Assembly (NCBI GenBank): GCA_963719495.1
Contig: CAVRCI010000003.1
Coordinates: 149,833 to 213,832 of the forward strand
From: an uncultured Verrucomicrobiae bacterium
GTDB lineage: Bacteria > Verrucomicrobiota > Verrucomicrobiia > Chthoniobacterales > JAATET01
Direction of reading: 5' to 3'
DNA length: 64,000 nt
Shown: positions 41,118 to 61,412 of the stretch, piece after piece
Layout of the letters: each line of letters begins with the position of its first letter
Numbering within the stretch: the first letter of the stretch is position 1
Position numbers and translations under genes: made by a program
Notes under the pieces: model-generated
Database searches by the model: none
Seen by the model: the letters and a program-made list of their open reading frames with translations, nothing else
Told to the model about the DNA's origin: nothing

Positions 41118-42140
41118 ATGGATACACATCTATGCTTAGAAAATGATGGCCAGAAGCTCGTTAGAACGAATTTCTGGGAAGCGGCGCACAACGCTAAAGG
41201 CAACTTCTTTCTCTCGACCAACGCTGGTGCCATGCGATTGATCGTTCCCGATTGTCAACGCCATGTCGTGGACGAGATTCGTTACGTCGATACCGTCTAC
41301 GTCACTCGTGGACCGCATTATACGGCTCCATCTGAGATCGGGATTGAGCTGTTATTTGAAGACGAATCTCCGATGCCGTATGTCCTCCAGATGCACGTTT
41401 CCGACTTGGATCGACTATTTCCAAAATCAGAAGCCGGCCAGAAAATCCCTTTTACGGTTTGGGTCAATGGGAAACGGGGGAAAGCCAAGCAAGTATTGTC
41501 AATGCGAGCCCATCTTGGCTGCGCAAGCTTGCAGCTTCCAACAATTGGAACGCCTTCGACCGAGGCAGCAACAACCAGTTCTGATTCGATTCCACAGAAA
41601 GTCTTGAGTTTCGAGCACTACACACTCCAAACTGGACACACCTATAAGTCGCCCCGTCAGGAGTGTCCGGACATCGCCTTGGAAACCATCGATTCGATAT
41701 TATTAGAAGCTCGACTCTCAGGCTCCTATGTTCCCGCGTTGACCGAGGGCAACGAGCAATTGTATTTGAAGGAAATCATACTGGATGCAGGTTTCGCCCT
41801 ATCAACCGCGTATGCTTCGAAAGTGGGGGAATCTGAGATCGTTCCGCTTGCGACATGGATTACAAATTGGAACAAAACCACGGAAGATAAGGCGTGGCAG
41901 ACTACCTTGAAGCTCATCGATATCGTCAGCTCGGACGATCAATCAGATGCCTCTGCGATAAAGCGCTTCCCAATCCCAGTCCGCGCCCCACTACAGAAGC
42001 CGAAAACGAGTCCCTGGTGCGCGGTATGCTTGATGCCGCACATGGCTCGGTTTCAAAAGCTGTTGCCAATGCTAGGTGATTTCGAGCGCGTTGTAACTTG
42101 GGCTCAATTGAAGAGCGCTGGCTTGGACATCACGCTTTAG
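41118..42140 (+). CDS. hypothetical protein, paralog A
   Basis: 340 aa; collinear similarity along its whole length to 48485-49519. Confidence 0.85.
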   Translation: MDTHLCLENDGQKLVRTNFWEAAHNAKGNFFLSTNAGAMRLIVPDCQRHVVDEIRYVDTVYVTRGPHYTAPSEIGIELLFEDESPMPYVLQMHVSDLDRLFPKSEAGQKIPFTVWVNGKRGKAKQVLSMRAHLGCASLQLPTIGTPSTEAATTSSDSIPQKVLSFEHYTLQTGHTYKSPRQECPDIALETIDSILLEARLSGSYVPALTEGNEQLYLKEIILDAGFALSTAYASKVGESEIVPLATWITNWNKTTEDKAWQTTLKLIDIVSSDDQSDASAIKRFPIPVRAPLQKPKTSPWCAVCLMPHMARFQKLLPMLGDFERVVTWAQLKSAGLDITL

Positions 42141-44601: not shown

Positions 44602-46514
44602 TCAGGTGGGGGTTGCCTCTTCCGGTTGAACGACGGCGGGTTGGCACACTGTAGTGACGGTTTTCTCCATGGCCTTCATCCCGGACCTCAGGATTTCTAG
44701 GAATGTGTGATTCCGGCACTCTGCGTCGCCAATAATGGCATCAAAGGAGAGGATGAAGGTTGGCGTCGGAATGACCTGCCCGTCAGGACGCCGAGTCTCG
44801 AAGTCCTGATAGAAAACCTTCCCGATCGAGAAGATTGGCGCCCACTTCATCTGTTGGAGGCGTCTGTCGAGCACCTCATCCACTTCGAGCACGGCGTAAT
44901 ACCAGACACGCTGGATGTTCGGGCAGTGATCTACCAACTTTTGAGCGCGGTCGAGCAACTGATTCACCGCGTTGGTGTTCTCCTTTTCGTCGTTGGTCCT
45001 GCGCTTGATCTCGACCACAACCACATCGACCTGGGGCACCTCAGCCGGATTAGCGGAGAAGATCATCGCAATGTCCGGACGACCGTCATCGCCGATTCCA
45101 TCGTCGGAGAGCCGAATTGCATCGATGACCTCGTCCATCCGCTTCTCACTCAGGATGGTCTGAAAGCTCATGAACTTATCATCGAGCAACCACGCGTTGT
45201 TCCGATAGATGCCTTCCACCAATCCCTCCTGATTGAACTCGTGGTATCGGGGGACGATCAAATTGTGGATCTCCGCTTCTGAATTCTCCGCGTTCATTTC
45301 CTTCATCCGACGGATAATCAATCCCGGTAGAGGATATACTCGGTCAAAGAACGGGAGGAGAGTTCCAGGGATAACTCGAAGGTCTCGTCGTCGAGTTTGT
45401 CCGACTGAAGAACTTCCTTCTGGGCCTTGAAAAAGCGGCGCTGCGCGATGTCCAGTGCATCGTCCGTGTCGATTAGTCCGACGGATGTTTCCTCGAAGTA
45501 GCCGAGCAAATGGGGAAATTTTTCCTCGAACTCCTCTTTGGTCTCTTCGTTCCTCTCGCTGATTTGCGAAATTTCGTCGGCCAGCACCTTCCCAAGCTCG
45601 CGGCGCAAGACGCGGATCAATTCTTCTTCTGAAACCGTTTCAGGCAGGATCAGTTTTTGTCGGGCACCGTCTGCTGATCCCTCAAAAAGCTTCGAGAAGA
45701 ACAGACAGATGACTGAGTGATCCGCAGGAATCGCATTCGGCTGAATGAGTTTAATCGGAATCGTCCGCCCATCGATGCTGGCTGCGATAAGGACTCGCCG
45801 CGGCCCAAAGCCGGATTTTACCTGATAGAGCATCTCGACGCCTTCGAAAGCATCCAGAGCCGGATCGGTAATCTTCACCGAAGTCAGGTCCGGCAGGTCG
45901 TCCGGGACGATTGCCTCGTCCGTGGAGAAGAAATCCTTCTCGTAGTTTTTCTCGTCCGTTTCCAATTCCAGCCGGATGAGAAACGTTTCACCACGTCGCT
46001 TCAGGTCGTAAAGCGTGGGAAGAAACTGCTCGATGATTCTCGATTTGAGAGCACCTGGTTTGAGGTCGTCGTAGGATTTGACGCGTTGCCCGGTAAATCC
46101 TTCAAAAACGAGCCTGGTCAACTGGGGCTCCGGATCAGGAAGCGTATCGACGTGAGATATCCCTTTGAACTGCTCGGAAAATCGAAAGGTTCGTCGATGG
46201 TTGCCCCAGTTGCTCTCCACCTCGACCCGGTCGAAGTAGTTGAGGTAAACAAGCCGCCCCAATCCTTTGTGGCCCGCGTCCCGCGGTTTCAGAAGCTGGC
46301 AAAATCGGTCGAAACTGCCGTCGTCAAAACCGCTGCCGTTGTCTGTAATGGTAAATCGGAGGGTGTCGGCGGCTACGAAGCCATCAATCTCGATCCGGAT
46401 CGTCACTTCCGAGGCTCCGGCATCAAGGGAATTCGCCAATGCCTCGAACAGGACCTGAATGAGCGACGGATTCGGGAAAAAGAACCGAATAGCGTTGGAT
46501 GTCTCGATATCCAT
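44602..46514 (-). pseudogene. GHKL (Hsp90/MORC-like) ATPase fused to PD-(D/E)xK nuclease, split by a 1-nt frameshift near 45320
   Basis: EALANSLDA, DNGSG, KGLGRL in 45318-46514. NNAWLLDDKF, RPDI, VVVEIK in 44602-45321. Junction reads CGG GAT TG ATT ATC. Confidence 0.75.
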
Positions 46515-47297
46515 TTAGGTAAGGCGGAAGTAGGTTTGGATGGCGGACCGCAAGCTGGCGGGCTTCAGGTTTCCACCAAGGGTGGCTTTGATCGATGCGA
46601 GAATGGCCCGCCATTCCTCGGATTCCTCGGGGAAGCCATCGAGAAAACGGCGGACGTCGTTGAGGATAGTTTCGGGCAGTTCAGGCCCAGGGTCGCCGGG
46701 GAGCGTTCCTGCCAGGCGGAAGACATCGGCGCGGTGTTTGGCGATGTCCTTGGCATCCACCTTTGCCCCTGCGGCTTTCCGATCGCTGAGGTCCAGCCAG
46801 GCGCTCGATTTCAGCGGGATCAGCGCGGTGGCGGTGACAAAGGAAACACCATCCCGGACTTCGGAATGCTCGCGGATCAGCGCGTGATAGTCGTCATCGA
46901 CAAGGATCGCGGAGAGGCTGTGGGTGTCCTCACCCAGGGGAATCGGAACGATGGTCTGATCTTCCCCAAGGTCGATTCCTTCAGGCTTCCGGCTGAAGAT
47001 TTCCAGCATGAAGGGAAACTGTTCGTCGGTCGGTTTGGCGAAACGATAGAGCACAGGTGGGCCATCCTCGCTGCGCTGGCTGACTTTGTAGCCGCCGTCT
47101 TTGATGAATTGGCGCATTGCCGCGATGAATCCGGGATTCACGGCTTCCAGCACCAGAACGATGTCGAGATCCTTGGTAAGGCGGAATTCGAGGCCCTGCC
47201 GGGTGAACCAGTCATCGCAGGCGGCTCCGCCGATCAGGATCAGCGAATCTTCGTAATCCCGGAAACGTTCGCGGAAGATGTCGAGTCCCCGGATCAT
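46515..47297 (-). CDS. AbiEii-like (pol-beta fold) nucleotidyltransferase
   Basis: LIGGAAC...RLTKDLDIVL motif, LIPLK, KHRADVFRL. ATGA overlap with the upstream gene. Confidence 0.75.
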   Translation of the reverse strand: MIRGLDIFRERFRDYEDSLILIGGAACDDWFTRQGLEFRLTKDLDIVLVLEAVNPGFIAAMRQFIKDGGYKVSQRSEDGPPVLYRFAKPTDEQFPFMLEIFSRKPEGIDLGEDQTIVPIPLGEDTHSLSAILVDDDYHALIREHSEVRDGVSFVTATALIPLKSSAWLDLSDRKAAGAKVDAKDIAKHRADVFRLAGTLPGDPGPELPETILNDVRRFLDGFPEESEEWRAILASIKATLGGNLKPASLRSAIQTYFRLT

Positions 47298-48292
47298 GAC
47301 CAATTCACCTCCTCAATGAGTGTCTCAAGCTGCTGTTGGATGCGCTCGTCCACGGAGTCTCTCAAGCTGAGGTAGAGGGACAGCGGATCGACGCGGATCT
47401 CGTCTCCGAGGAGGAGTGGATTGTAACTCCATGCCTGGAGCTGGATATCGGCTCCCGAGGAGCCAGGACAGCCATGGAAGATGCCCTTCTCGAGGTTCGC
47501 CCGGTAGGTTTCCTGAGGGAGGGCGTAGGTGGGCAGGCGATCGTCCTCGATCATGGTCCGGCTACTGAGAGCGGTTAGGCCAGCCTCGAGTGCCGGATAG
47601 CCCACCGTGCTCCATTGAATCCAATGAGTCTTGCGAACGGGCGAGGTCAGGAAGGATTGGGCTTGTTCCCATAGTTCCCGCCGATGGCGATTGAACTCAA
47701 GAACGATGGATCGCCCTTTTCGAGTGGTTCCGCAGAGTCCTCCAGCCTCCAGTTCGTCCTTGGCCCGGCTGAGCATCATCGGTGAGCCGCCGACTTTCTC
47801 CGCGATGCTGCGCAGGGGGACGCCGGCGATGGATTCTCTGAGGAGGTGGTAAAGGAGAATGCTCTGGGTGGAGGGTGAGAGCTTCTTCCCATGGGCCGGT
47901 GAGATGCGGTGAAAATGCTCCCGAAGATCGACCATCACGAATGGCATGAAGAGCTGGTTGCCAGGGACGATGAAGGGGACTCCCATCTGGACCATGCGAT
48001 TTCGAACATAGGACGGAATGTTGGGCAAGACGATGGTGACTGGTTCTCCGAGCTTCTCGTGGAGTAGCTCGGCGTGGGAGGCATACTCAGAGGGGGAGCC
48101 TGTTTCCCATTCGGAGGCTTCCAGGGCAAGCAGGCATTTTTTGCCGAAGATCCTCAGGGCTCGAAGCAGGTAACGCTCCCGTAGGAACAAGGGTAACGCC
48201 GCCATCCCATCCGCAAGCTCCATCTGGAGGTCCGGCAGTTTTCCAGTGATCGAATCCAAGTAAGCCACCAAGCGTTTTTCTAGCGCTTCCAT
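47294..48292 (-). CDS. AbiEi-like / winged-helix partner of the nucleotidyltransferase
   Basis: VPFIVPGNQLFMP, central wHTH (LRSIAEKVGGSPMMLSRAKDELE), C-terminal VDPLSLYLSL...DERI. Confidence 0.7.
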   Translation of the reverse strand: MEALEKRLVAYLDSITGKLPDLQMELADGMAALPLFLRERYLLRALRIFGKKCLLALEASEWETGSPSEYASHAELLHEKLGEPVTIVLPNIPSYVRNRMVQMGVPFIVPGNQLFMPFVMVDLREHFHRISPAHGKKLSPSTQSILLYHLLRESIAGVPLRSIAEKVGGSPMMLSRAKDELEAGGLCGTTRKGRSIVLEFNRHRRELWEQAQSFLTSPVRKTHWIQWSTVGYPALEAGLTALSSRTMIEDDRLPTYALPQETYRANLEKGIFHGCPGSSGADIQLQAWSYNPLLLGDEIRVDPLSLYLSLRDSVDERIQQQLETLIEEVNWS

Positions 48293-48309
48293 CAAACGTA
48301 ACTACTCAC

Positions 48310-48340: not shown

Positions 48341-48484
48341 TCTGTCCGTTACAGTGACTGGCGCGGCGCCAAGCCCCATTCGCAACCAAGCCAAAATTCC
48401 TGAGATGCTTTTCAGGCTACCACAGGAGGTAAATTTTTTTGAGTTACTCAAAAAAAAACACCTCCCAAATCAGTATCTTTGAGT

Positions 48485-49519
48485 ATGGAAACAATTCTAT
48501 GTCTCAAAAATGATGGCCCTAAGATCGCTTCGACGAACTTTTGGGAAACGGTTGGCAATCACCATGGTCTCTTTTTCCTCTCGACGAACGCGGGAGCCTT
48601 GAGGCTGATGGTTCCCGATAGTCAACGCCACGTTGTGAATGAGTTTCACAATGTGAAGCATGTGCGGGTAACTCGCGGGCTTCACCACGAGGTTCCGTCG
48701 GAGATCGGTATCGAGTTGGTATTCGTCGATGACTCCCGGGCACCGTATGTGCTGCAAATGCATGCGTCGAATCTTGACCGATTGTTCCCCAAGAGCGAAG
48801 CGGGTCAGGATCTCCCCTTTACGGTGTGGATCAATGGACACAATGGAAAAGCAAAAGAGGTTTGGACATTCCGTGCCCGTCTGGGTTGGACAGACGCCCA
48901 GCTTCCCAGCGCAGAAATCACTCCCAAGCGATCCTCGAACCAGGAAAAACAGGGCGGTTCACGTCGGATTTCAAGCTTCGAGCACTACGCGCTGCAAGCG
49001 GGTAAGAATAACTTGTCGCCCCGTTGGCAGTGCGATGAAGCATGGCTTGACTCATCCCGACAGATCTTGGAGACGGCCTGTTCGGAGAATGAAATCGTTC
49101 GAGTGGCCGCTTTGGGATCAGAAGAACTATTTTTTTCCGAAATGCGATTCGACACGTTCACCATCGCAACCGCTTTCGGTGTTAAACCCGGAATTTCAGG
49201 GATTGTCTCGCTTGCGACCTGGGTGACCAACTGGGACGAGACGAACCAGGGACCGGCTTGGCAAACGGTAATCGAAGCAAAGGCCGCCACCTCGGAGAAA
49301 CTGGCCGCTGAACCGAGCCTCATGAGGGATTTCGAGGCATTGTTCACGGTCCCGATGCAGAAACCACAAAGCGGACTATGGTGCGCTGTCTTCGTCACGC
49401 CCTTCATCGTTAAATTCCCGGAGATCATGCAGATTGTGGGAAATTTTCAGCGTGCGATGACGTGGGCACAACTGGAAAGCGCCGGCTACGACATTTCGCC
49501 CAATCGCGATCCCGATTGA
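48485..49519 (+). CDS. hypothetical protein, paralog B
   Basis: Shares TNFWE, FFLSTNAGA, DRLFPKSEAGQ, SFEHY, ATWxTNW, WCAV and WAQL blocks with 41118-42140. Confidence 0.85.
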   Translation: METILCLKNDGPKIASTNFWETVGNHHGLFFLSTNAGALRLMVPDSQRHVVNEFHNVKHVRVTRGLHHEVPSEIGIELVFVDDSRAPYVLQMHASNLDRLFPKSEAGQDLPFTVWINGHNGKAKEVWTFRARLGWTDAQLPSAEITPKRSSNQEKQGGSRRISSFEHYALQAGKNNLSPRWQCDEAWLDSSRQILETACSENEIVRVAALGSEELFFSEMRFDTFTIATAFGVKPGISGIVSLATWVTNWDETNQGPAWQTVIEAKAATSEKLAAEPSLMRDFEALFTVPMQKPQSGLWCAVFVTPFIVKFPEIMQIVGNFQRAMTWAQLESAGYDISPNRDPD

Positions 49520-49772: not shown

Positions 49773-50369
49773 CTATGCCAAAACAGCTCGCTCTAAACTC
49801 CCGTCGAGAAATTGAACGTATTTCGCTGTGTTAGATAGGTTTTCGTGCCCCATCAACTCGCGCATCTTGAACATATCTCCGTTGACGAATGGTGACGACC
49901 AGAGCCGAGAGGCGAAGGTTTTTCGCATGCTGTGAGTGCCCTGCTCGGTAAGTCCCGCCCGTTTGTAGGCGGATCGGATCACGGAGTCGGCGTGCTGACG
50001 CGTCAAGGGAACGGAGTAGTTTCCCTGGCGCGGGAATAGATAGGCTCGCCCAAAACCGGGATGGTCCATCTGGGCGTTTCGGAGCCACTCAAAGATCGCG
50101 GCTCGCGCCTCTTCGTGAAGCGGCATAGTTCGCGATTTGCGCCCTCCCTTCATATATTGTCTCGCGACGGTAACCGACTCTCTAACCGTTCCTCTCGTCG
50201 AATCAAAAACATCGAGGACGGTCAGGCTCAGCAGTTCAGAGATCCGAAATCCCGTTCGGCTCCCGAGGACAAATATGGCTCGGTCCCTGGCGGCGTAGCG
50301 GCCGGCAAACGATCTCAAAGTTGCCGTGTATTGACTGTCGGTGAGGGCGGTGCATCCAGTTGTCAGCAT
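49773..50369 (-). CDS. minimal tyrosine recombinase (catalytic domain only)
   Basis: TGFRISE (R), KGG, HSMRK (HxxR), MGH and TAKY (Y); 198 aa. Confidence 0.9.
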   Translation of the reverse strand: MLTTGCTALTDSQYTATLRSFAGRYAARDRAIFVLGSRTGFRISELLSLTVLDVFDSTRGTVRESVTVARQYMKGGRKSRTMPLHEEARAAIFEWLRNAQMDHPGFGRAYLFPRQGNYSVPLTRQHADSVIRSAYKRAGLTEQGTHSMRKTFASRLWSSPFVNGDMFKMRELMGHENLSNTAKYVQFLDGSLERAVLA

Positions 50370-50516
50370 ACCGGAAGATACCCGTTGGCATTCCCCTATC
50401 TGTTGTTGGTAGAGGTGTCCGGCACTCCACCCCTAGTGAAATCTTCCAAATTACCGAAAGAGAAGATTTCGTGATTCCAGACCGGAGAACGCGAAAAACC
50501 CATCGCTCTTGACGGT

Positions 50517-52290
50517 CTAGCTTACGGGGATGCTGTCCGATTGCCGAGCAACCGAGCGCCGGCGCGCGAGGAAATAGATGACCGGATAGATGAGGAGTTC
50601 CAGCAGGAAGCTGGTGGCGAGTCCGCCGATCATCGGGACAGCGAGTCGGCGCATGGTGTCGGCTCCCGCGCCAGTCGCCCAAAGGAGCGGCAGGAGGCCG
50701 GTGAAGGTGGACATGACAGTCATCGTCTTGGGGCGGATGCGCTTGACGGCTCCGTCGTGGACGGCGGTCCAAAGGTCCGCGACTGTGTTGAGTTTCCCTT
50801 CTTCGCGGAAGCGGTTGTAGCTGGTGTCGAGGTAGAGGAGCATCACGGCTCCGGTCTCGGCATCGAGGCCGGCCAACGCGATCAGGCCGACCCAGACGGC
50901 CAGCGACATGTTATAGTCCATAAACCACAGGAACCAGATCTCTCCGATCAGCGAGAACGGAACGGCGAGCAGGATGATCGACACGCGCAGCCAGCTTCGC
51001 GTGGAAAGGTAGAGGAGGAGAACGATGCCGACGAGCGCGAGAGGAATCGCAATGCGGAGTCGGGCGTTGGCCTCCTGCATGTATTCGTATTGACCTGACC
51101 AGACGATGGTCACGCCGGGCGGCAGCGGGACGGCCCGAGCGACGACTTGCTGAGCACGTTCGACGTAGGTGCCGATGTCGATGTAGGCGATGTCCACGTA
51201 GACCCAGCTCGTGAGGCGGGCGTTCTCGCTTTTCACCATGGGCGGGCCTTAACGCATCGAGATGTCGGCGAGTTTGGCGAGCGGGACCTGGGCGCCGGAC
51301 GGCGTGGAGACGAGGGTTTGCCGGACGGATTCGATGGTGTCGCGGAGTTCCGATGGGTAGCGGACGTTGACCGGGTAGCGCTCCAACCCCTCGACGGTGG
51401 AGGTGACGGTCATCCCGCCAAGCGCGGTCATGATGACATCCTGCACGTCGCCGACGACGAGGCCGTAGCGAGCGATCTCGTCGCGGTTGATCTCGATGTC
51501 GAAGTAATTGCCGCCGACGCTTTTCTCAGGAAACGCGCTGGTCGTGTTCGGGCTGGTGAGCGGATCGGACTTCAACGCGTTGGCCGCCGCGTTGGCGAGA
51601 CCGGCAAGCTCGGTGAGATCGGACCCCATAAACTTGATCCCGATTGGGGTGCGGATCCCGGTTGAGAGCATGTCGATGCGGGTGCGGATCGGCATGGTCC
51701 AGGCGTTGGTGAGGCCGGGGATCTGGACGGCGTCGTTCATGCCGGGAACCCGGAGTTCACCGCCCTCGCCGTCGGGCACGTTGTAGCCAAAGATGATCTC
51801 GTCGGTCGTGATCGGGCGGATGGAGGGCAGGACTTTCTTGGGCAGCCACTGCGCCCACGCGGGCCAGCCGTCGTAGAATCGCGGCTCGCGGACCTGCCGC
51901 CACTTCGACTTGTCGCGGTGGAGGGTGATGGTGGTTTCGAGCATCGACATGGGAGCCGGATCGGCGGCCGTTTCGGCGCGACCGATTTTCCCGAAGACGG
52001 CTGCGACCTCGGGGAATTTCGCGAGCAGCTTGTCGGTCTGCTGGAGGATTTCCTTCGCTTTCGTCACGCCGATGCCGGGATCGGTCGTGGGCATGTAGAG
52101 GAGATCGCCTTCTTCGAGCGGCGGCATGAATTCGCTGCCGAGTTGGCTGAACGGATACCACATCGCGGCGAGCAAGCCGACAGCGGCGAGGAGCGTGAGC
52201 CATTTGAAGCGCATGACGAAGGCGAACGCTGGATTGTAGATCACCTCGAGGATGCGGCTGATGGGGTTGCGGTTCGAATCCGTGGCCCGC
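50517..52290 (-). pseudogene. CusA/CzcA-type heavy-metal RND permease, 5'-truncated with internal TAA
   Basis: GSEFMPPLEEGDLLYMPT, WSGQYEYM, GAVKRIRPK. In-frame TAA at 51249-51251; N-terminal half missing. Confidence 0.88.
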
Positions 52291-52435
52291 TCGCCCAACA
52301 AGCGGCGGCCTGTTTGCGGCGTTCTGGCGGGGCGATCTTCGCTGGGAACCCCTGGAATCCGCTTCGCCCGGCAGCGTGCTCATGCCAAACCAAACCCGCG
52401 CCTGTCTGCGCCGCCTGCGTTGCAGCTACGGAAGC

Positions 52436-52912
52436 TTGTTTGCCGAGGCGCGGCAGAGCATCCGAATCGCCACACCTTATTTCGTTCCCGACCGCCGGAC
52501 GCAACACGGGTTGGTTGAGGCAGCGCGCCGCGGGGTCGAGGTGAGCCTGCTCGTTCCACGGAAAAGCGACGTGCCCGTCACCCTTTGGGCCGCCCGGGCA
52601 GCCTACGCCCGACTGCTGGCTGCCGGAGTCAGGATTTACGAGTATCTCCCCCGGATGTTCCACGCCAAGACGGCCGTGATGGACGGCAATTGGGCGATCA
52701 TCGGCACAGCCAACATGGACTACCGCAGCTTTCTCCTGAACTACGAACTGAACCTGTTCACTCGTGACGGGCAACTGTGCCGTCAGCTACAAGCCCAATT
52801 TGAACGGGATTTGGCCGAGTCGGCTGAGATTCACCTCCAAGTCTGGGCGAAACGAAAATGGACGGAGTATTTTTACGAAATCATCGGGTGGCTCAGTCGC
52901 CGCTGGCTCTGA
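52436..52912 (+). pseudogene. cardiolipin synthase/PLD C-terminal fragment
   Basis: TPYFVP, HAKTAVMD (HKD), GTANMDYRS. Only the second PLD domain is present. Confidence 0.8.
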
Positions 52913-53182: not shown

Positions 53183-55771
53183 CTACTGTCGGGCCACCGG
53201 CAGGGCGGCCAATTGCACACGCTCAAGCTCGTCAGCGACATCCTCCATGAAGACCTTCTCGGCGCGATAAATCCCTTCCGCCTCGGTCTGCAATGCCTCT
53301 TCGCCGACGCCGACGGCCTGAGCGCGCACCTGCCGCAGGGCCGTGGCGGCCCGATTGAAGAGACCTAGAATCCGCGCCGGATCTATGTGCCGTAGTTCCC
53401 CGGCGTGAAGCTCAGCCGTAGGATCGAGGATGGTCTGAATGGAAGCGATGACCGTTGTGGACGGCATCGACTTCGGGATCAAGTTGTCTTTGCGAACCCG
53501 CTCCTCATGGGTAAGTGCCTGGCGGACAGTCTTGAGTGGCACCGCTTTGGCTTTTTCATGCTTCGCCTCAAAAACAAACGCACGCCAGTCGTCAAAGACC
53601 CACAATCCGTCGGGAGCGCCTTCGTCGTCCCAACGATGTGTTCTGGCACCGACCATCTGCCCGAGCACCGCAAGCCCACGTTCAAAATTCTTGGCATCTT
53701 CTGGGGTGCTGAGGATGCGGCGAGTTTCAGCCAGTTCCCGGTCAAATCGGGAACCCTTGATGTTCCATCGAGTGAGCAGGCCATTTATCTGGCGGAACCA
53801 CTCTCGCACAGGAAACTCGACTACAATCTCCTCGAGCGGTTTCGCGAGGAGCTGCGCGCGGAGAGTGCCGAACCAACGAATGCCAATCGAAGTTGTTGAT
53901 GCGGCTTCGAGATGCTCGATGCAGTTGGCTTTGAATGACGCCTGTTTCGTCGTTTTGAACGCAAGAAACGCGGCGACCGCAGCCTGGTGATGCCAAAACG
54001 AGCGGTAGGGTTTGAGTTCGCCTCCACCTGCCAACCCTTCAACAACCTGCGTTGCGCAACCCAACGCTTCAGCGAACTCTGCATTCCACATCCTGTCCTC
54101 GTAAGCGATTTCAATAGGAGCTACCTGAGCGAGCGTCGCCGCGCAGGGGTCGGCTTCCTTCGTGCGGTTATTCCGATCGTCGATAATTCCGCTTTCGGCA
54201 GCCGTCCAGTCGTCAGTTCGCTGCAAAAACGTGTCACTGAGTTCGATGAAATCCTGCTTCGTGCGCCCCTCCGAGTTTTCGAGTCCAAACGCGATCTCGG
54301 CCTGAAGTTCCGGGTGCATGCCGACGACGTTCGTCTGGGTGCAGCACCATTTCAGCAAGTCGCTTCCAATCATCAGCACGATCGCATAGTCGGCCTCGTC
54401 GCGGGTGCAGCGGCCCATCGCCTGAGTGACACGAGTGCGGATGCGGTCGCGCAATTGTGAAACCGCGCCGAGCCGCTCCATCATGAAGCGCTCCTGCAAT
54501 CCGGCACCTGTCGGCAAATTTACCAGCGACAGAAGCCGGCAGTCTTCTCCCGGCAAGTCGATGCCCTCCCACCGGTTCGCCACGATCAGAAAAGTGGGAT
54601 CCGTTCTTTTGGTGAACGGATCGAGCGACTGTTCCACATCGGTCGCTCCGAGGACTGGAAAAGCTGCTCCGAGCGTTTCCTTCAGCCGATCGCGCGTCCG
54701 ATCATCAGGCACCAGGATAAGTGCGCGCCCCGCCTCCCGACAAAGCGCCGAGACGGTCTCCCATGTCGTCTCGTCGTCGAGTCCGTAGCCGGGAAAGAGA
54801 ACCAATCGGCGTCCAGTGCCCCTCTTGTCCCAACCCGGCGGGATCGGCAGCCGAGCGATCCTTTTCACGCCGAAGCTCCGCTCGATGTCGCCGTCTTCGC
54901 CCAAAGTCGCCGACATGTAGAGGCGCTGCGTCGCGCCGGCGAACGGGCTGTGGGTCAGCGCCGGGGAGATAACTGGCCGGATCTCAAACCTCTCGCCCGA
55001 GCAGTAGATCGAACAAGCGTCGAGATGCTGAGAAATTTTACTCCACGGATATCCCCAATCCTCATTCTGGCCAAGCGCATCCAACACTTCACAAACTTGA
55101 GGATGCAGGTCGTGGGTGGCGATCGCAGAGACCATCTCTACCAAGGCCGAACGCGATCCAAGCTCAGGATTCTCAATCCGATGGACGATGTTCTCCGAAA
55201 GCACCGGCTTGAGCACTTGGAAAAGTGCTGCAAACGCGGCGGTGTCCCTCCTCGTGATCGTCACAGTCCACATCGACGAGACGTAATTGTCTGCGGCGTG
55301 CGCATCGTCGCAAATGATCAGTTCGGCGTCGTCAATCGCGGGATTCGTGTTGAAGACGCCGCTGTAGGTCGTGATCGCGATCGCCTTCGCTTGCTGATAT
55401 GCAAAGAATGCAGCCTGATCATAGTCCTTCTGCTTGCCAACGAGCAGAGATGGTTGAACGCCGTAATTGCGCGTCTGCGCGGCGACTTGGCTGCAAAGTT
55501 GCCGGGTCGGACAGAGAAAGACGACGCGCTCATTGAAGGCACGCCGCCGGTATTCGGCGATGAGGAGAGCGACGAGCGTTTTGCCGGAACCGGTCGGCAG
55601 CTCGATAGCGAGATCGTGTGTCGAGAGATGCTTGGCGTGATACTCGTCCAAGAGGCGTGCTTGGTGGTCCCATAAAAACTTGATCGACGCATCCCGTCTC
55701 AAATCGCGAAAGAGTATGGTCGGCGATTCCGGTTTAGGGGCTGTGGATGCTGGGATGCGGAATTTTGCCAT
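53183..55771 (-). CDS. SF2 helicase with C-terminal PD-(D/E)xK nuclease (Hna-like anti-phage protein)
   Basis: LPTGSGKT, DDAH, SAT, QAMGRCTR; C-terminal PDGLW...FEAK; about 860 aa. Confidence 0.75.
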   Translation of the reverse strand: MAKFRIPASTAPKPESPTILFRDLRRDASIKFLWDHQARLLDEYHAKHLSTHDLAIELPTGSGKTLVALLIAEYRRRAFNERVVFLCPTRQLCSQVAAQTRNYGVQPSLLVGKQKDYDQAAFFAYQQAKAIAITTYSGVFNTNPAIDDAELIICDDAHAADNYVSSMWTVTITRRDTAAFAALFQVLKPVLSENIVHRIENPELGSRSALVEMVSAIATHDLHPQVCEVLDALGQNEDWGYPWSKISQHLDACSIYCSGERFEIRPVISPALTHSPFAGATQRLYMSATLGEDGDIERSFGVKRIARLPIPPGWDKRGTGRRLVLFPGYGLDDETTWETVSALCREAGRALILVPDDRTRDRLKETLGAAFPVLGATDVEQSLDPFTKRTDPTFLIVANRWEGIDLPGEDCRLLSLVNLPTGAGLQERFMMERLGAVSQLRDRIRTRVTQAMGRCTRDEADYAIVLMIGSDLLKWCCTQTNVVGMHPELQAEIAFGLENSEGRTKQDFIELSDTFLQRTDDWTAAESGIIDDRNNRTKEADPCAATLAQVAPIEIAYEDRMWNAEFAEALGCATQVVEGLAGGGELKPYRSFWHHQAAVAAFLAFKTTKQASFKANCIEHLEAASTTSIGIRWFGTLRAQLLAKPLEEIVVEFPVREWFRQINGLLTRWNIKGSRFDRELAETRRILSTPEDAKNFERGLAVLGQMVGARTHRWDDEGAPDGLWVFDDWRAFVFEAKHEKAKAVPLKTVRQALTHEERVRKDNLIPKSMPSTTVIASIQTILDPTAELHAGELRHIDPARILGLFNRAATALRQVRAQAVGVGEEALQTEAEGIYRAEKVFMEDVADELERVQLAALPVARQ

Positions 55772-56055
55772 AACCTTTCGATAATGCCGCAAGACAGGAA
55801 TGTTTCACAAGCGGAAGGCAGATATTTCTTGCTGCCCGGATCGGCCAGATGCGCTGGCTTGAAAACCCAGCCGCGTCCTTCAAGTGCGGCCTGCCCTTGT
55901 AGGGAATCGAGAGACTCCCAGTCGGTCAATGCAGCATGGAATGCCTGACACAAGACATACCCTCTTTTTGTGTCAATGCTCCTGCTGGAAGAAGAATATT
56001 GGGGAAAGGTCTCACGTGGAATGCGAAGTAGCGCCAGAGTGATGTAGAAAGCTGG

Positions 56056-59000
56056 CTAGAACCCATCCGCAAGATCGTCTGCGTCGTCGAACTCTCCGGA
56101 GACTTCTGAACTTTCCTGTCCAACATTTCGCAGGCCAAAAACCTCGCAAACAAACTGAAACCGGATCTCCTTAATGTGCTCATCCGCCGCGACTCCCCCG
56201 GTAAAGTTCTCCATCACTCCCTCGCAGACTTGCAGCATCAAACCCACGGAGGCTCGATTGTCGGGCCGCGCCGTCTCGTCCGCGCAACCTAGAAAATCGC
56301 TTCGAACAATCAGCGGCAGCGGTGTTGCTTCGAGATCCTGAAGGTCAGCTCGCTTACAGAGCACTGCTGGAAAATCGTGCGCCAATTGGGCCGGCATAGG
56401 CACTCCCCGAGCTTCACACTCTTCCGCCGCGACCGCGAAAAGAGTTATCCCGATCCGCCGCCAACCCCATCTTTCGATTTGCTCGGCGAGCCACCTCCGT
56501 TTTGCCCACAGAAGAAGTGCTGCAACCGCCGCCGCCGCTCTGACGCCGGGAAACTCGTAGTCCGCGACGACCTCGACAACAGGCGCGTTCGCAGCCGGAA
56601 AAAAGACGAGCCAGCGCTCTCCGGCAATGCGATCCTTGCTATACAAAAGCCCTGTATCGGAGTCGGTGCAAGACTGGCACAGTTCCCGGAATCCATCCTC
56701 TTGCAGAACCATCTCCGGGGCCTGTTCGATCGCGAATGCCAGCGCTACGGCACCTCCGATTGAGGGATCAGCATGAAACCGATTCTTCAACGAGCAAAAG
56801 AGCCGCTCATATTCATCGCACTGTGGCCCTTGAGTCCGGGCGATTGCCGAAGTTATCGCAATTGCATCGCGCACCAGGCTGGATGTCGAAGAAGCAACCA
56901 AGGCGTGCGGCAAACTCTCAAACAACTTCACTACGTCGAGGTGCGGCGCGATGGAGATGGCGTCTGATCCAATTGCCACCATCATCCCGAGCGCCTCATC
57001 CGCGTGAGTTTGGGCAAAGGCTAACCACGCCGCAGTGAAACATCGGGCTGCTTCCTGGTATTCCTCTGCCTTTACCCATTCTCCAATTGCGCGGCAAAAT
57101 TCTTCCGCAGCTTCCTCATAGACACCGCACAGGCACCATGCGCGGGCGGCATTCTCGCAAGATTTCGCTGCATTTGCTGGCTTCGCCAGCTTATGGAAGC
57201 GCCTAGCCTGATCTTCTTCGGTAGCAGCTTCGCGGTGCACCTCGCCGATTTTTCGCCATAGGACGAGCGCCTTTTCGCCTATCTCTAAAGAATTGGAAAT
57301 GTCACCTTCCCGCTCAACGATCGTTGCGATCAGTTCATGACTCCAAGCAACATGGCGGCAAGAACTCATTTCCTTCCCAAGTCGCTTGACCTCCTCGTAG
57401 CACGCCCGAGCTTTGTCGTAGCGAGCCTCGTCTCGGTAAACATTTCCTAAGTTTCCAACGTTGATTACCTCGACATCGCGGATACCGTGCATTCGCGCTA
57501 GGGCAATGGCTTTCAGACAGACTCTCTCGGCTTTTTTATACTTGGACGATCGTCGATATAGAATAGTAAGCCCATTGCAGACAGCCATCTGCAATCGCGG
57601 GGAATCCAATTCGAGCGAAAGGGCCTTGAGCTTGCGAAGGCAGCCAAGCTGCTTTTCTCGATCAAAGCTTACAATGTAGTAGTTCTGTAGATTGAGCAGG
57701 GCCATGCCGAGACCATAGGAATCACCTGTCCGTTCGAAGATAGGAATCGCTTTTTGACACTGTGTGGCACATTCAGCCATACGACCCCGGCGCACATAAA
57801 CAAAAGCGAGATTAACTCTCACCATTGCCTCGTTCGCAATCACCCCAGCTTCTCGATATTCCTCCGCCACTTCCCTGAGAATTGTTTCCGCCTCATCGCC
57901 ACGATCCAACTCCAGCAGAAATAGCGCTCGGGACGCTCGGGCAATAAGCGAGACGCCTGGGACCTGGCTCCGCTGTAACATTTTCTCGGATAGCCGTGAC
58001 GAAAGAAGCGCGCTGGGCATACTTCGGACGTGTTGCTTAAGATTTGCCGACTGGTGCAGCCCAAGGCCCAACACGTGCCAATCTTTTTTCGCACGCGCAG
58101 CCCATAGGGCACTCGCGATCATCTCGCGGGCCAGATTCGTCCTTCCGGTGACTTCTGACCAGTGGGCCATGGGAAGAAGGTCGTCATATACCTCCTGCGC
58201 AAGCCCTCCTCTCGCCGAGTGGATCACGCGCAAGCCCCATGCGGACTTTTTTGTAAAGGCGGAGGCGATGTTCCGATGGATCTCGCGCGCGAGATCGACT
58301 CGATTGACTTCTCGGAAAACAAATTCCTGAAATGCAGAATGGAATACCTGGACGTTTTTTTTGGCGATCGAAAGCAAGGGCGTCAGGCGCTTCGCTTCAT
58401 CCATTGCTGCGATCCCGCTAGTCTTGACGCCGCGACACGCGGTCAACACCTGGCCGAGCTGCTCGAAAGTAAGAGCGGATTCGCAGAGGCTCACAGCCGA
58501 CACTAATTCTTTCTGACGTGCGTCAAGACTTGCCCACATATTCGCATGGTAATCGTCCAAAGACTGCGGGGGTCCCACGGAGCCGGGCGATGTTTGGACA
58601 TAATAGCGAAGGTAAAGTGGATTTCCGCATGACAATTCCAACGCAACTCGACCAGTCACCGGTGCATCCGGAAGCGCGCTAGACACATATTCTTCTGACT
58701 CCGAATCTGTAAATCCGGGGCAATGCAGCGTCCGAAACTCTGGCGGCAGCCGTGCTGGGATCGACCGGCCCGCCAGGACAATTCGAGAAACGCCCGGCGG
58801 GAGGGAGATCAAGTCGGCAGCGATGTCCGGGGCTTGGTCGACGTCATCGATAAGCAGAGTTGCCGAGACGCGGCGCAACAGGGATTCGCAGGCAAGCCGA
58901 CCTTCCTCGGCCGAGAGGAACTGCTTCGTCTGTTCTCCGACCATGGGAGCCAAATGTCGGCAGACATGAATCAAGGCACCGAGCAAAGACTGCTGACGAA

Positions 59001-59688
59001 GCGGAAGATAGACATGCTTCGGCTCAAGGCTTAGCAAGTAGAGCAGTGCGGTTTTCCCCGAGCCGATCCCACCGGCGAGAAATACTCGGGTATGGTTGGC
59101 GACCGCGGGTTGAAGCTGCTTCCGATAAAAGCTCGTCCGCAATATCGGCACGCCTCCCAAGCTAAGCTCGACTTGGTTGGCGTAGTTCTGCGGAGGTTCA
59201 TCAAACGAAATTTCGGCATCCAAGAAGCGTTCCGAAATACTAAGCGCGATAGCATCGCGCGCCCGATTCACAAGCTGGGAGCGCGTCCGAAACCGATTAA
59301 AGCTCACCCCCGTTTCGCCGATTTCTTTGATCAAATCGGTCAGCCGTGGTTCTCGTTGATCCGACGTTTCCTGAACAAACACGATCCTCGGCATTTCGCT
59401 CGAAAGCACCCACTCATCGTGTAATCCCGAGATCGTCATTCCTCCTGATTCGTCGATCCAGCCATACCCGGTGCCGTAGACTCCAATGAAGATGTCGCTC
59501 TGTTCAAGGAACGCTGAATACAGATTCCGCGGCGGATGAGGCCGCGGGGTTTCTTCAAAAAAGATGGGCGTGAGACCCATCTTGTGGATCATCCGAACCA
59601 GCGCTTGGCGTTCATCCGCAAATTCGACAAGCCGACTGCTCAGAAAAACGCGAATGCGTCGATCCTGCGTCAAAATTGCGCCACTCAT
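56056..59688 (-). CDS. DUF4062 - STAND NTPase - TPR protein (NLR-like)
   Basis: RVFLSS...DER...SDIFIGVYG-x-GYG...HDEW; GGIGSGKT, LLIDDVD, GNPLYL, FHSAFQEF; multiple TPR-like helices. Confidence 0.8.
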   Translation of the reverse strand: MSGAILTQDRRIRVFLSSRLVEFADERQALVRMIHKMGLTPIFFEETPRPHPPRNLYSAFLEQSDIFIGVYGTGYGWIDESGGMTISGLHDEWVLSSEMPRIVFVQETSDQREPRLTDLIKEIGETGVSFNRFRTRSQLVNRARDAIALSISERFLDAEISFDEPPQNYANQVELSLGGVPILRTSFYRKQLQPAVANHTRVFLAGGIGSGKTALLYLLSLEPKHVYLPLRQQSLLGALIHVCRHLAPMVGEQTKQFLSAEEGRLACESLLRRVSATLLIDDVDQAPDIAADLISLPPGVSRIVLAGRSIPARLPPEFRTLHCPGFTDSESEEYVSSALPDAPVTGRVALELSCGNPLYLRYYVQTSPGSVGPPQSLDDYHANMWASLDARQKELVSAVSLCESALTFEQLGQVLTACRGVKTSGIAAMDEAKRLTPLLSIAKKNVQVFHSAFQEFVFREVNRVDLAREIHRNIASAFTKKSAWGLRVIHSARGGLAQEVYDDLLPMAHWSEVTGRTNLAREMIASALWAARAKKDWHVLGLGLHQSANLKQHVRSMPSALLSSRLSEKMLQRSQVPGVSLIARASRALFLLELDRGDEAETILREVAEEYREAGVIANEAMVRVNLAFVYVRRGRMAECATQCQKAIPIFERTGDSYGLGMALLNLQNYYIVSFDREKQLGCLRKLKALSLELDSPRLQMAVCNGLTILYRRSSKYKKAERVCLKAIALARMHGIRDVEVINVGNLGNVYRDEARYDKARACYEEVKRLGKEMSSCRHVAWSHELIATIVEREGDISNSLEIGEKALVLWRKIGEVHREAATEEDQARRFHKLAKPANAAKSCENAARAWCLCGVYEEAAEEFCRAIGEWVKAEEYQEAARCFTAAWLAFAQTHADEALGMMVAIGSDAISIAPHLDVVKLFESLPHALVASSTSSLVRDAIAITSAIARTQGPQCDEYERLFCSLKNRFHADPSIGGAVALAFAIEQAPEMVLQEDGFRELCQSCTDSDTGLLYSKDRIAGERWLVFFPAANAPVVEVVADYEFPGVRAAAAVAALLLWAKRRWLAEQIERWGWRRIGITLFAVAAEECEARGVPMPAQLAHDFPAVLCKRADLQDLEATPLPLIVRSDFLGCADETARPDNRASVGLMLQVCEGVMENFTGGVAADEHIKEIRFQFVCEVFGLRNVGQESSEVSGEFDDADDLADGF

Positions 59689-60737
59689 AAAGTTTCCCAG
59701 ACTCCCAGCGCAGCAAGTTCCGAGATGGGGTCCTCGGATTGTTCGGGGCCGACGAGATAAGCGCAGAGATATTGGGCGTCTTTCGAAATTTGCTCCCGCA
59801 AGGCCGCGCTTGAGAACGAAAATTGGAGCGGTAGACCGCTTTCCACTGGATCCGACTCGTGACGGAGCGCCTCGTAGACATGAGCAAAATCCACCTTCCC
59901 ATTAGGTGCGACAGCATCAGGAAAGCGGTGTTTGCAAGTCAGGTTGCAAGCTGCCTGGACTATCCGCTGCCGCGGAAATTCTCCTTGGAGTTCCGCTAGC
60001 ACGGTTTGAAACGTCGGATTGAACGAAAGCCTTGTTGCGGTGACCGGAAAAAATCTGAGCAACTGAGCGTCCCTAAGCTGAGCGATCTCGGCGGGATTCT
60101 CCGGCGGACGCGGAGAATGGTGGATTTGTTCATCGCTGTCATCATCGCGAGTAATCAGAAATTCGACGCTTTCGTGCGAAAGAGTCTCGCGATCCTGAAA
60201 GCTCACATTGCGTTTCAAGATGCCGGCTTCCAAATCCATTTCATTAGAACAAAAAAGCGCTGGGAAGAACAGAATCGGTTTTACGGTTCCCATCTGCCGA
60301 AGCCATCGAAAATTTCCAGAAAGCGGAAACTCTTTTCCAACGGTCAAGGTCGCAATATTCAGAGCGTAGTCGCGCTTTCGTTCATCGTCGCACATTCGGG
60401 CGATCAACTCTCCTCCATTTGCCTGCAAAAGCATCGTATACGCGTTTGCTGACGAATTTTGGATAAATGAAATGTCCAATCCTTCGCCGGACCCTGAGAC
60501 ACGATCCCAGCTCTTGAATAACTCGAAAAGCTCGCGTCCCCTCTCTATGTCATGAAAAGCGAGAGCCACCGCCGAAATGTCTCTCAAATCACCGAAACGA
60601 GGCAAAGGGATGAACCCCAGCGCCTCGCACTTCGCCGCTTTCCATAGTTCGGGGAGCACCGGGTTTGCCATCAGCATGAGCCTTGGTAAGACTCCAAAAT
60701 CCATGCCTTCGGGGCTATCGGGAACAGGCGAATCCAT
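59685..60737 (-). CDS. hypothetical protein translationally coupled to the STAND gene
   Basis: 350-aa intact ORF whose TGA overlaps the STAND ATG (ATGA at 59685-59688). Confidence 0.75.
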   Translation of the reverse strand: MDSPVPDSPEGMDFGVLPRLMLMANPVLPELWKAAKCEALGFIPLPRFGDLRDISAVALAFHDIERGRELFELFKSWDRVSGSGEGLDISFIQNSSANAYTMLLQANGGELIARMCDDERKRDYALNIATLTVGKEFPLSGNFRWLRQMGTVKPILFFPALFCSNEMDLEAGILKRNVSFQDRETLSHESVEFLITRDDDSDEQIHHSPRPPENPAEIAQLRDAQLLRFFPVTATRLSFNPTFQTVLAELQGEFPRQRIVQAACNLTCKHRFPDAVAPNGKVDFAHVYEALRHESDPVESGLPLQFSFSSAALREQISKDAQYLCAYLVGPEQSEDPISELAALGVWETL

Positions 60738-60932
60738 GCGTTCGATTAAAACGCGCGGATGTCTGTTTTGAAAGCCCTACCAGAGGTCGCGCCCATCTCT
60801 CTCATCTCGCGAAATCGGCAGAGCCGCTACTTGCAAGGAATCAGAGACAAGTTCAATCGCGTCCGTTCCCAACCCGGAAAATTGCGCAACCTTTTCGGGA
60901 AAAGGCGTAGCCGCACTGCTCCCGATTACCCA

Positions 60933-61412
60933 GTGTCACCCAGATTGCTTAATCGTCGGCGCTTTCTTCGGACAACCGCCGCAGCAAAACTGCTGAACAG
61001 CTTCGGCGGCATCCTTCCCGGATACGCTCAGGCCGGTCGGAAGCCGGAGTTGAGCGGCACGGACCTCAATCTCACCATCGCTACAGAGACGCTACGAATC
61101 GGGGGTCGGCGCACGAAGGGCATCACCATCAACGGCGTGATGCCCGGCCCGCTAATTCGCCCCCGCGAGGGCGATGACGTGTCGATTCGGGGCCATAACC
61201 AACTCGACAAATCGACCTCCATCCATTGGCACGGGCTCATCCTTTCCGTTCGAATGGACAGCGTGCCGGGCGTGAGCTACGCGGACATCCCGGCGGGCGA
61301 GACGTTTATCTAACGCTTTCCCGCCCGGCAGAGCGGCTCCTACTGGTATCACAGCCATACGAGTCTCCAGGAACAGCTAGGGCACGCCGGACCGATGATC
61401 TTCGAGCCGCGG
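60933..61412 (+). pseudogene. CopA-type multicopper oxidase N-terminal fragment
   Basis: Tat motif RRRFL, SIHWHG, TAA at 61311-61313, then GSYWYHSH; truncated afterwards. Confidence 0.85.

Follow-up and report, generated by a model that had tools for sequence, protein, structure and literature searches.

An uncharacterised 350-residue protein is encoded directly upstream of a NIR-STAND-TPR protein in a candidate two-gene defence system

Introduction

Characterised Avs proteins are mostly encoded by single genes and bind phage proteins directly. The Avs1–24 and other antiviral STAND families resemble the pair described here in their effector-STAND-TPR architecture and exchangeable effectors, and none appears with a dedicated upstream partner of such a kind in the available text of the two reports (PMC13581612; PMC13601566). 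The same text names host EF-Tu as the cofactor of Avs7 and places a split-TPR Avs1 sometimes together with Upx, a 1200-aa sensor-nuclease, in contrast to the 350-aa partner reported here. According to the accessible part of a 2026 survey, some families defend without an identified trigger, and extra factors may be needed.

The N-terminal DUF4062 (NIR) domain of the protein studied here had been called a predicted TIR/nucleoside-deoxyribosyltransferase-like domain in an earlier sequence-only reading. It has since moved beyond prediction: in three 2026 preprints it is reported to act as an effector that depletes NAD+, also on an Avs2 STAND protein (10.64898/2026.09.04.749371); NIR homologs hydrolyse NAD+, yielding ADP-ribose plus nicotinamide. 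PsAvs2 of Pseudomonas chlororaphis, for which NAD+ depletion and abortive infection were demonstrated, is similar to the STAND protein studied here in domain order, effector family and a conserved catalytic Glu (10.64898/2026.09.04.749371). PsAvs2 works without a second gene, and its Avs2-type sensor recognises terminase, whereas the present protein ends in a zincin-like domain and has a partner upstream at every locus examined. Swarozyc, Evangelion, Vulcan and Vesta employ the same NIR NADase effector family, and descriptions of them mention no STAND NTPase; Vesta is also a two-gene system, with an alkaline phosphatase as partner, and the remaining three each consist of one gene whose sensor is a short AUX domain or HEAT repeats. 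The 2026 preprints make both this effector and its DUF4062-STAND-TPR architecture known; no description of the pair was found in the searchable literature. Here we describe this pair in a 64,000-nucleotide stretch of DNA from an uncultured Verrucomicrobiae bacterium (hereafter, the window).

Results

The partner gene (59685–60737, 350 aa) and the STAND gene (56056–59688, 1210 aa) both lie on the minus strand, as do all features given below. The sequence-only reading had described two intact ORFs with an ATGA overlap, and the coordinates and the absence of internal stops agree with this. The partner stop overlaps the STAND start at 59685–59688, which suggests translational coupling of the two, and a 4-base overlap or a comparably tight junction recurs at homologous loci. 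The GC content is 0.547 here versus 0.63 for the genome. The neighbours, earlier described as decayed, are only partly so: upstream lies a truncated multicopper oxidase ORF, but the next gene downstream (53183–55792) is intact and encodes an 869-aa Hna-like SF2 helicase-nuclease matching PADLOC PDC-S28 (E 1e-108) and PDB 10UJ, which is Hna (E 1e-37). Hna was considered as a third gene and rejected as lying outside the system; none of the 95 neighbouring genes at homologous loci matched PDC-S28 (E≤1e-15).

The 1210-aa protein contains a DUF4062/NIR NADase-type effector, a STAND NTPase module, a TPR/helical-repeat sensor region and a zincin-like C-terminal domain. The effector (residues 13–93, 59410–59652) matches Pfam PF13271 with an E of 1.4e-14 and 54.4 bits against a cut-off of 24.7, and its GLHDEW motif carries E92, a putative catalytic Glu assigned from conservation rather than from an alignment with PsAvs2. 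The NTPase module (around residues 200–460, 58309–59091) features Walker A (206–213, with K212), Walker B D281, R308, a GxP motif (GNP, 355–357) and the FH motif (449–450) with the winged-helix H450; its NACHT Pfam match is weak (E 0.027). E92, K212, D281 and P357 are invariant in 25/25 full-length homologs. The best solved relative of the module is the MalT-type STAND sensor PH0952 (6mfv, E 1.7e-24, profile positions 194–480), a likeness to the antiviral STAND families; AfsR is also among the solved relatives, and no DNA-binding domain was detected in the protein. The sensor region (around residues 500–1010, 56659–58191) matches TPR_12 (E 2.3e-14) and TPR_MalT and has invariant N666, N705, R712, G748 and N749. 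Pfam and motif positions thus bear out the DUF4062 domain with its Glu (HDEW), the Walker A/B, GxP and FH motifs and the TPRs that had been read from the sequence. The protein shares with antiviral STAND proteins the central NTPase motifs, an N-terminal effector exchangeable among homologs and a C-terminal TPR-like sensor, and it may belong to one of the 589 clades in PMC13581612, as far as its available text goes. None of the PADLOC 2.0 Avs models (Avs1–5) matched it significantly, with a generic TPR model as the only match, and against six STAND homologs the best Avs-model match (E 0.009) covered only Walker A.

The C-terminus, earlier taken for an unrecognised domain of ∼250 aa, consists of helical repeats followed by the zincin-like domain (around residues 1022–1190, 56119–56625). 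Structure comparison of this domain returned M1, M30, Wss1, YbeY and M36 zincins among its top matches, with a moderate best Z of 9.3 (6oiu, rmsd 3.3, 133 aligned residues). HExxH is absent from all 28 sequences compared, and the domain is probably non-catalytic. Foldseek against the PDB with the STAND C-terminus gave nothing at E≤0.001, and the ESM Atlas gave no usable match. Residues 535–705 of the Upx terminase sensor (PDB 9wuf) align with this region (Z 8.5, rmsd 4.0, 149 residues). Generic zincins reach the same moderate Z, and the alignment therefore does not imply a common trigger. Unlike the window protein, Upx lacks a STAND NTPase and carries a C-terminal nuclease.

The partner belongs to an uncharacterised family of 185 representatives, nearly all stand-alone proteins of 320–420 aa. 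As the sequence-only reading had found, it corresponds to nothing named: 120 family members share no family-wide Pfam, NCBIfam or PADLOC match, and scattered matches comprise SEC-C motifs in two members plus singletons. The AF2 model (pLDDT 94, pTM 0.87) contains an N-terminal α/β domain (around residues 12–195, 60153–60704) with a GxDYG motif and conserved Y42, W77, Y100, K135 and K175, and a C-terminal all-helical domain (around residues 214–345, 59703–60098). The latter harbours the most conserved residues of the family, R222, P231, Q261, A262, C264, N265, Q316 and D320; judged from conservation, the polar ones could equally make a catalytic or ligand site. Neither a phosphatase match nor a recognisable catalytic motif was detected in the partner. 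Foldseek with the whole model against the PDB and BFVD returned nothing at E≤0.001, and two wider structure comparisons gave no clear match (best Z 3.8 and 3.6), with rows that aligned mainly residues 27–189 of the model. With fold searches devoid of a clear match, mimicry of a phage protein by the partner is unsupported. The partner gave no usable match in the ESM Atlas, and its profile found nothing under E 0.3 among PDB sequences.

The partner had also been likened to the C-terminal domain found in large nuclease-TPR proteins, which was taken to suggest a split or permuted sensor. The searches made gave this proposal no support: two among longer proteins, which are weak for remote fusions, showed no long fused form, and the longest family member among the matches listed was 496 aa (152 sequences retrieved). 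Matches of the N-domain profile to long frames were weak (E 0.009–0.6), and the four inspected looked unrelated. More broadly, it is still plausible that part of the sensor is encoded by a gene of its own. Homology of the partner to the C-terminus of the STAND protein itself was ruled out by hhalign (prob 0.3). Complex prediction of the partner with STAND residues 540–1190 gave 0.49, 0.00 and 0.00 in three runs without folded controls, which favours neither side.

The sequence-only reading had proposed a two-gene NLR-like candidate defence system and would have withdrawn it had partner homologs not been linked to STAND genes. The same STAND gene lies directly downstream at 32/32 GTDB partner loci with downstream DNA, in a sample skewed to the 55/120 family members bearing the search motif, and the partner lies upstream of 12/12 STAND matches found in 1157 genomes. 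Given these counts, the linkage is not due to chance, and the pair is a conserved unit. It is distributed across many phyla and archaea at ∼20% identity, with loci in environmental hosts such as Rhizobium, Novosphingobium and Deinococcus, and is absent from 100 relatives of the source genome. Pairwise identities of the partner and of the STAND sensor half correlate (Mantel rho 0.84, 0/2000 permutations, n=25); this co-divergence shows co-inheritance and says nothing about physical contact. An initial scan of GTDB that used close patterns gave no relative, 0/300 Clostridia genomes scored, and viral contigs contained no copy, the four stretches found there being chance matches. Plasmids gave no match with the window partner or a Rhizobium STAND, and one record (L092) with divergent partners; no second plasmid copy of the L092 STAND was found.

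In L092, the partner (E 3e-95) still lies upstream of a STAND-TPR protein (E 6e-146) whose NB-ARC scores above cut-off. NIR is absent from this STAND, and a HetE-N-like gene of 141 aa comes before it; the HetE-N match has 22 bits, below the Pfam cut-off of 25. The C-terminus of the small protein and the N-terminus of the STAND appear to share a short Asn/Ile/Gly-rich amyloid-like motif. This variant, unlike the window pair, resembles the Bell/HeLo-amyloid-NLR pairs and Bab/Agp in its small HetE-N-like gene and shared STAND motif; those pairs are not described with an upstream 350-aa protein (10.1101/2024.11.07.622273). The effector swap is known from this one locus, where the partner is retained without the NADase, indicating that it goes with the sensor and not with the NADase.

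Homologs of the partner N-domain also occur C-terminal to a hydrophobic segment in two other proteins, L107 (hhalign prob 96.8, E 2.9e-10) and L127 (prob 97.4, E 1.5e-11). An N-domain profile run over 301 genomes gave, besides the seed genome, one significant match, a 297-aa membrane protein. No STAND accompanies these membrane proteins, one of which is encoded immediately behind a SIR2 gene, and their loci, unrelated to the pair, look defence-like.

Genes adjoining homologous loci of the pair include Gabija, Thoeris, CBASS, AbiE and Mza. Defence neighbours (E≤1e-15) were present at 9/26 homologous loci versus 4/26 controls, an excess that is modest and not significant (two-sided Fisher ∼0.2, computed by hand). 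The matches at test loci look mostly like near-full-length core defence genes, and those at control loci look like housekeeping homologs.

Discussion

From its domains and conservation, the pair is very probably an NADase-type defence system. If so, the partner would rather probably act at the sensing step, and on balance we lean towards an Avs-like abortive-infection system in which the partner serves as a dedicated co-sensor or regulator. On the model of published Avs proteins, the STAND protein would be ADP-bound and auto-inhibited at rest, and its TPR and zincin-like C-terminus would read a phage cue, leading to ADP/ATP exchange and oligomerisation; the probable outcome would be destruction of cellular NAD+. 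The 350-aa partner would belong to the sensing arm as a dedicated subunit, produced in step with the STAND protein. It might complete the target-binding surface as a co-sensor or, as a guarded decoy or brake, rest on the sensor until a phage cue removes or alters it. The two-way linkage, the co-divergence, the invariant motifs, the role of NIR as an Avs2 NADase effector and the effector swap in L092 count in favour of this explanation, as do the patchy spread, the low GC, the adjoining Hna homolog and the defence genes beside homologous loci. A portable sensor domain would be expected to recur, and so the N-domain behind hydrophobic segments in defence-like contexts counts for it too.

Four other explanations were weighed. 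The first, unlikely though the least so of these, makes the partner an enzyme or ligand binder that has an output of its own beside the STAND, either as a second effector or by making or receiving a small signal. The cluster of invariant or near-invariant polar residues in its helical domain (R222, Q261, C264, N265, Q316, D320) would suit such a role, as would the N-domain in STAND-less membrane proteins, including the one behind SIR2; but the partner has neither a recognisable catalytic motif nor a Pfam, NCBIfam or PADLOC family, the STAND has its own effector, and 0/32 partner loci lack a STAND. A chaperone or stabiliser that cuts basal STAND toxicity and is dispensable for defence, as vstB (Vesta) and misB (Metis) are, is less likely again. 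VstB is strongly linked yet dispensable (10.64898/2026.09.04.749371), and the upstream position with translational coupling suits a protein needed before STAND synthesis; vstB and misB, however, are recognisable phosphatases, and a private chaperone would not be expected to have its N-domain recur in STAND-less membrane proteins.

We regard it as very improbable that the partner is a NIR-specific antitoxin or a reader of ADP-ribose, the NADase product: L092 keeps the partner although its STAND lacks NIR, despite an antitoxin-first gene order and an N-domain homolog that adjoins a SIR2 NADase-type gene. Equally little probability is given to a non-defence signalling module, a MalT- or AfsR-like STAND regulator on mobile DNA. 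PH0952 and AfsR are among the best solved relatives and the raw enrichment of defence neighbours is not significant, but the module at the N-terminus (NIR, or a HetE-N-like one for L092) is an effector that arrests cells, the STAND has no DNA-binding domain and the distribution across phyla is sporadic.

A more tentative elaboration of the preferred reading, possible though doubtful, is a guard or paired-receptor NLR. Rather than read a phage protein by itself, the STAND protein would monitor its own partner, the N-domain would be a portable phage-sensing module used also on membrane effectors, and the dead zincin would be an integrated decoy or docking site. Such an arrangement would be the bacterial counterpart of the sensor/adaptor-NLR pairs of plants. 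If true, it would mean a previously unrecognised phage-sensing module and a bacterial parallel to plant NLR pairs.

A STAND clade with a partner at every locus examined, maintained at ∼20% identity, allows indirect or two-part sensing to be tested concretely in bacteria, and single-gene screens can miss such two-gene systems. The partner defines a family that lacks annotation; its model is confident, one of its domains recurs in other defence-like proteins, and it could lead to further systems.

The partner and STAND genes form an intact pair in a low-GC stretch

The sequence-only reading had proposed two intact ORFs overlapping by ATGA, and this was confirmed in the window sequence: the genes for the 350-aa partner P0002 (59685–60737) and the 1210-aa STAND protein P0001 (56056–59688) lie on the minus strand and are joined through that overlap. 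The pair is single-copy in its genome, has a GC content of 0.547 versus 0.63 genome-wide, and sits within a low-GC stretch (0.558 over 38–61 kb) that also holds an integrase. The partner was absent from the 100 relatives searched, five of which belong to the same genus.

The gene downstream of STAND (53183–55792, minus) encodes an intact Hna-like helicase-nuclease that matches both the PADLOC model PDC-S28 (E 1e-108) and PDB 10UJ (E 1e-37), the latter listed as Hna (PMC13381803); since both match the same gene, PDC-S28 may be an Hna-related family. Two overlapping minus-strand ORFs of 333 and 262 aa (46515–48295) have an AbiE-type antitoxin/nucleotidyltransferase-like look, with a weak AbiEii match (E 0.085). 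Next to them, a 398-aa GHKL ATPase ORF overlaps a 239-aa ORF in which a nuclease-like motif can be made out by eye (44602–46514, minus), and the two look like a single restriction-type gene split in two. Two unknown plus-strand ORFs of ∼340 aa (41118–42140 and 48479–49519) clearly resemble each other by eye, the second matching a type II REase weakly (E 0.005). A tyrosine integrase and a truncated multicopper oxidase lie within 49773–52912 and 60759–61313, together with fragments that we take to resemble a CusA-type efflux gene and cardiolipin synthase; these regions look like decaying metal-resistance cargo surrounding the defence genes. A 442-aa ORF whose C-terminal half is AAA+-like (39514–40842, minus) sits at the left end of the low-GC region and adjoins a probable transposase (36570–37823).

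Partner and STAND are co-inherited across distant hosts

A GTDB motif scan returned 87 stretches, 35 of which encode the partner by HMM. Three were excluded because they hold no downstream DNA; in all the remaining 32, L081 included, a STAND homolog immediately follows the partner on the same strand. It is full length in 26; the other six (L030, L050, L054, L056, L062, and L066) are interrupted or truncated at a contig end or an assembly gap. Where both starts are clear, the junctions range from −14 to +3 bases and are often −4, and the ATGA junction recurs in the single one of three metagenome loci that has downstream DNA. Hosts include Alphaproteobacteria, Acidobacteriota, Longimicrobiales, Planctomycetota, Verrucomicrobia, Deinococcus, Cryosericum, Marinimicrobia, and the archaeon Methanothrix. 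The scan motif is present in 55 of 120 partner-family members, so other partner clades are under-sampled.

In the reciprocal direction, a STAND profile was run on sets of 105, 301, 401, and 350 scored genomes, and the partner was directly upstream of 12/12 matches. Ten of these were already known, since the genome groups were chosen around known loci; the two new ones (L102 and L103) are closely related to each other. Thresholds were strict and only 2–6 candidates were scored per genome, so distant orphan STANDs might escape this search. Pairwise identities of the partner and of the STAND sensor half correlate (rho 0.84, 0/2000 permutations, n = 25, leaving out two near-duplicates and one frameshifted partner), also for the 257 pairs below 35% identity (rho 0.75). 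The correlation shows co-inheritance, not contact.

Structure and conservation of the two proteins

Searching 1.84 billion sequences with a three-sequence profile gave 185 partner-family representatives at E ≤ 0.001, of which 150 were listed. Partner lengths are 83–496 aa (median 350, one above 430; 152 sequences), and the 120 aligned members have no family-wide Pfam, PADLOC, or NCBIfam match. Named members, from Verrucomicrobiales, Desulfobacteraceae, Spirochaetes, Clostridium, Flavobacterium, and Bacillus, are annotated ‘hypothetical protein’. The partner is confidently modelled (pLDDT 94) as an N-terminal α/β domain connected by a linker to a helical domain; the latter contains the most conserved residues, including the invariant R222 and Q261. 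An N-terminal SEC-C motif occurs in two members (P0062 and P0131), and in many others the N-terminus is extended by a basic, Lys/Arg-rich stretch.

Pfam places DUF4062 at residues 13–93 of the STAND protein, along with TPRs. Among 25 full-length homologs, whose median pairwise identity is ∼19% across the sensor half, invariant residues include F15, S17, S18, G88, D91, E92, G209, G211, K212, D281, and P357, and, in the TPRs, N666, N705, R712, G748, and N749. The closest solved relative of the profile is the STAND sensor PH0952 (E 1.7e-24, NTPase module); neither the window protein nor six homologs gave a significant Avs match in PADLOC. A model of residues 900–1190 (pLDDT 84.8) comprises helical repeats followed by an α/β domain. 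Zincins align with this domain (best Z 9.3, rmsd 3.3, 133 residues), as do residues 535–705 of Upx (Z 8.5, rmsd 4.0, 149 residues). These Z values are moderate, and the putative zincin-like assignment rests on agreement across several zincin families. HExxH is missing in 28/28 aligned rows, which makes protease activity unlikely.

Three 2026 preprints established DUF4062 as a TIR-like NADase: in Swarozyc (10.64898/2026.05.01.722283), under the name NIR in PsAvs2, Vulcan, and Vesta (10.64898/2026.09.04.749371), and in Evangelion (10.64898/2026.06.25.731849). The effector type is thus already known; family membership and the invariant Glu predict NADase activity for the window protein.

The partner in other settings

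At the plasmid locus L092 (NZ_AP025141.1; 5001–9621, plus), a divergent partner gene is followed by an overlapping gene for a 141-aa protein and then by one for a 1067-aa STAND-TPR homolog. This homolog fits the STAND profile from position 172 onward (E 6e-146) and lacks NIR. The 141-aa protein gives a weak match to HetE-N (E 2e-4), one below the cut-off, and its C-terminus shares, by eye, an Asn/Ile/Gly-rich motif with the STAND N-terminus, as in amyloid-signalling pairs (10.1101/2024.11.07.622273). Upstream of these genes, a Shedu nuclease gene is annotated. Since L092 keeps the partner and STAND-TPR without NIR, the partner appears, at this one locus, to persist through an effector swap. 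Rival readings make the partner an antitoxin of NIR or a dispensable stabiliser. The partner N-domain is also found C-terminal to a hydrophobic segment, by eye probably a two-helix membrane segment, in two stand-alone unannotated ∼300-aa proteins, both plus-strand: L107 (991–1884), flanked by a Ymh-family gene and a DNA cytosine methyltransferase-like gene, and L127 (4695–5618), directly behind a SIR2/PDC-S25 gene on an archaeal Natrinema plasmid. The two could represent another defence family, so far undescribed. Found with a membrane segment in these proteins and with an NLR in the pair, the N-domain may behave as a sensor or ligand-binding module; alternatively, the partner could have an enzymatic or ligand function of its own.

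A role of the pair in non-defence signalling is a further rival. With the two closest long ORFs on either flank searched, PADLOC (E ≤ 1e-15) found matches beside 9/26 loci versus 4/26 chance loci, a raw difference that is not significant (p about 0.2, hand-computed). Match quality differs: the nine comprise Gabija, Thoeris, CBASS, AbiEii twice, MzaDE, PDC-S15, GajB with PDC-M54, and a partial subtilase, whereas the control matches, to SspA/DndA, QatD, and mad3/mad8 models, are read as housekeeping homologs.

A candidate antiviral mechanism

Avs proteins bind a target at the sensor, exchange nucleotide, oligomerise, and activate their effector (PMC13581612; PMC13601566). With the anatomy, coupling, and conservation of the pair established here, its output would be NIR-driven NAD+ collapse, and the partner would take part in sensing, either as a co-sensor or as a guarded brake. 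Because the STAND C-terminus is Upx-like, terminase is a lead as trigger, and only a lead. No description of the pair was found in the literature searched, which covered few subscription papers; the STAND protein may already be present, unnamed, within a clade of PMC13581612. A member of none of the modelled Avs families or named NIR systems, the pair has the sequence features of an antiviral STAND protein with a NIR effector and would work like Avs.
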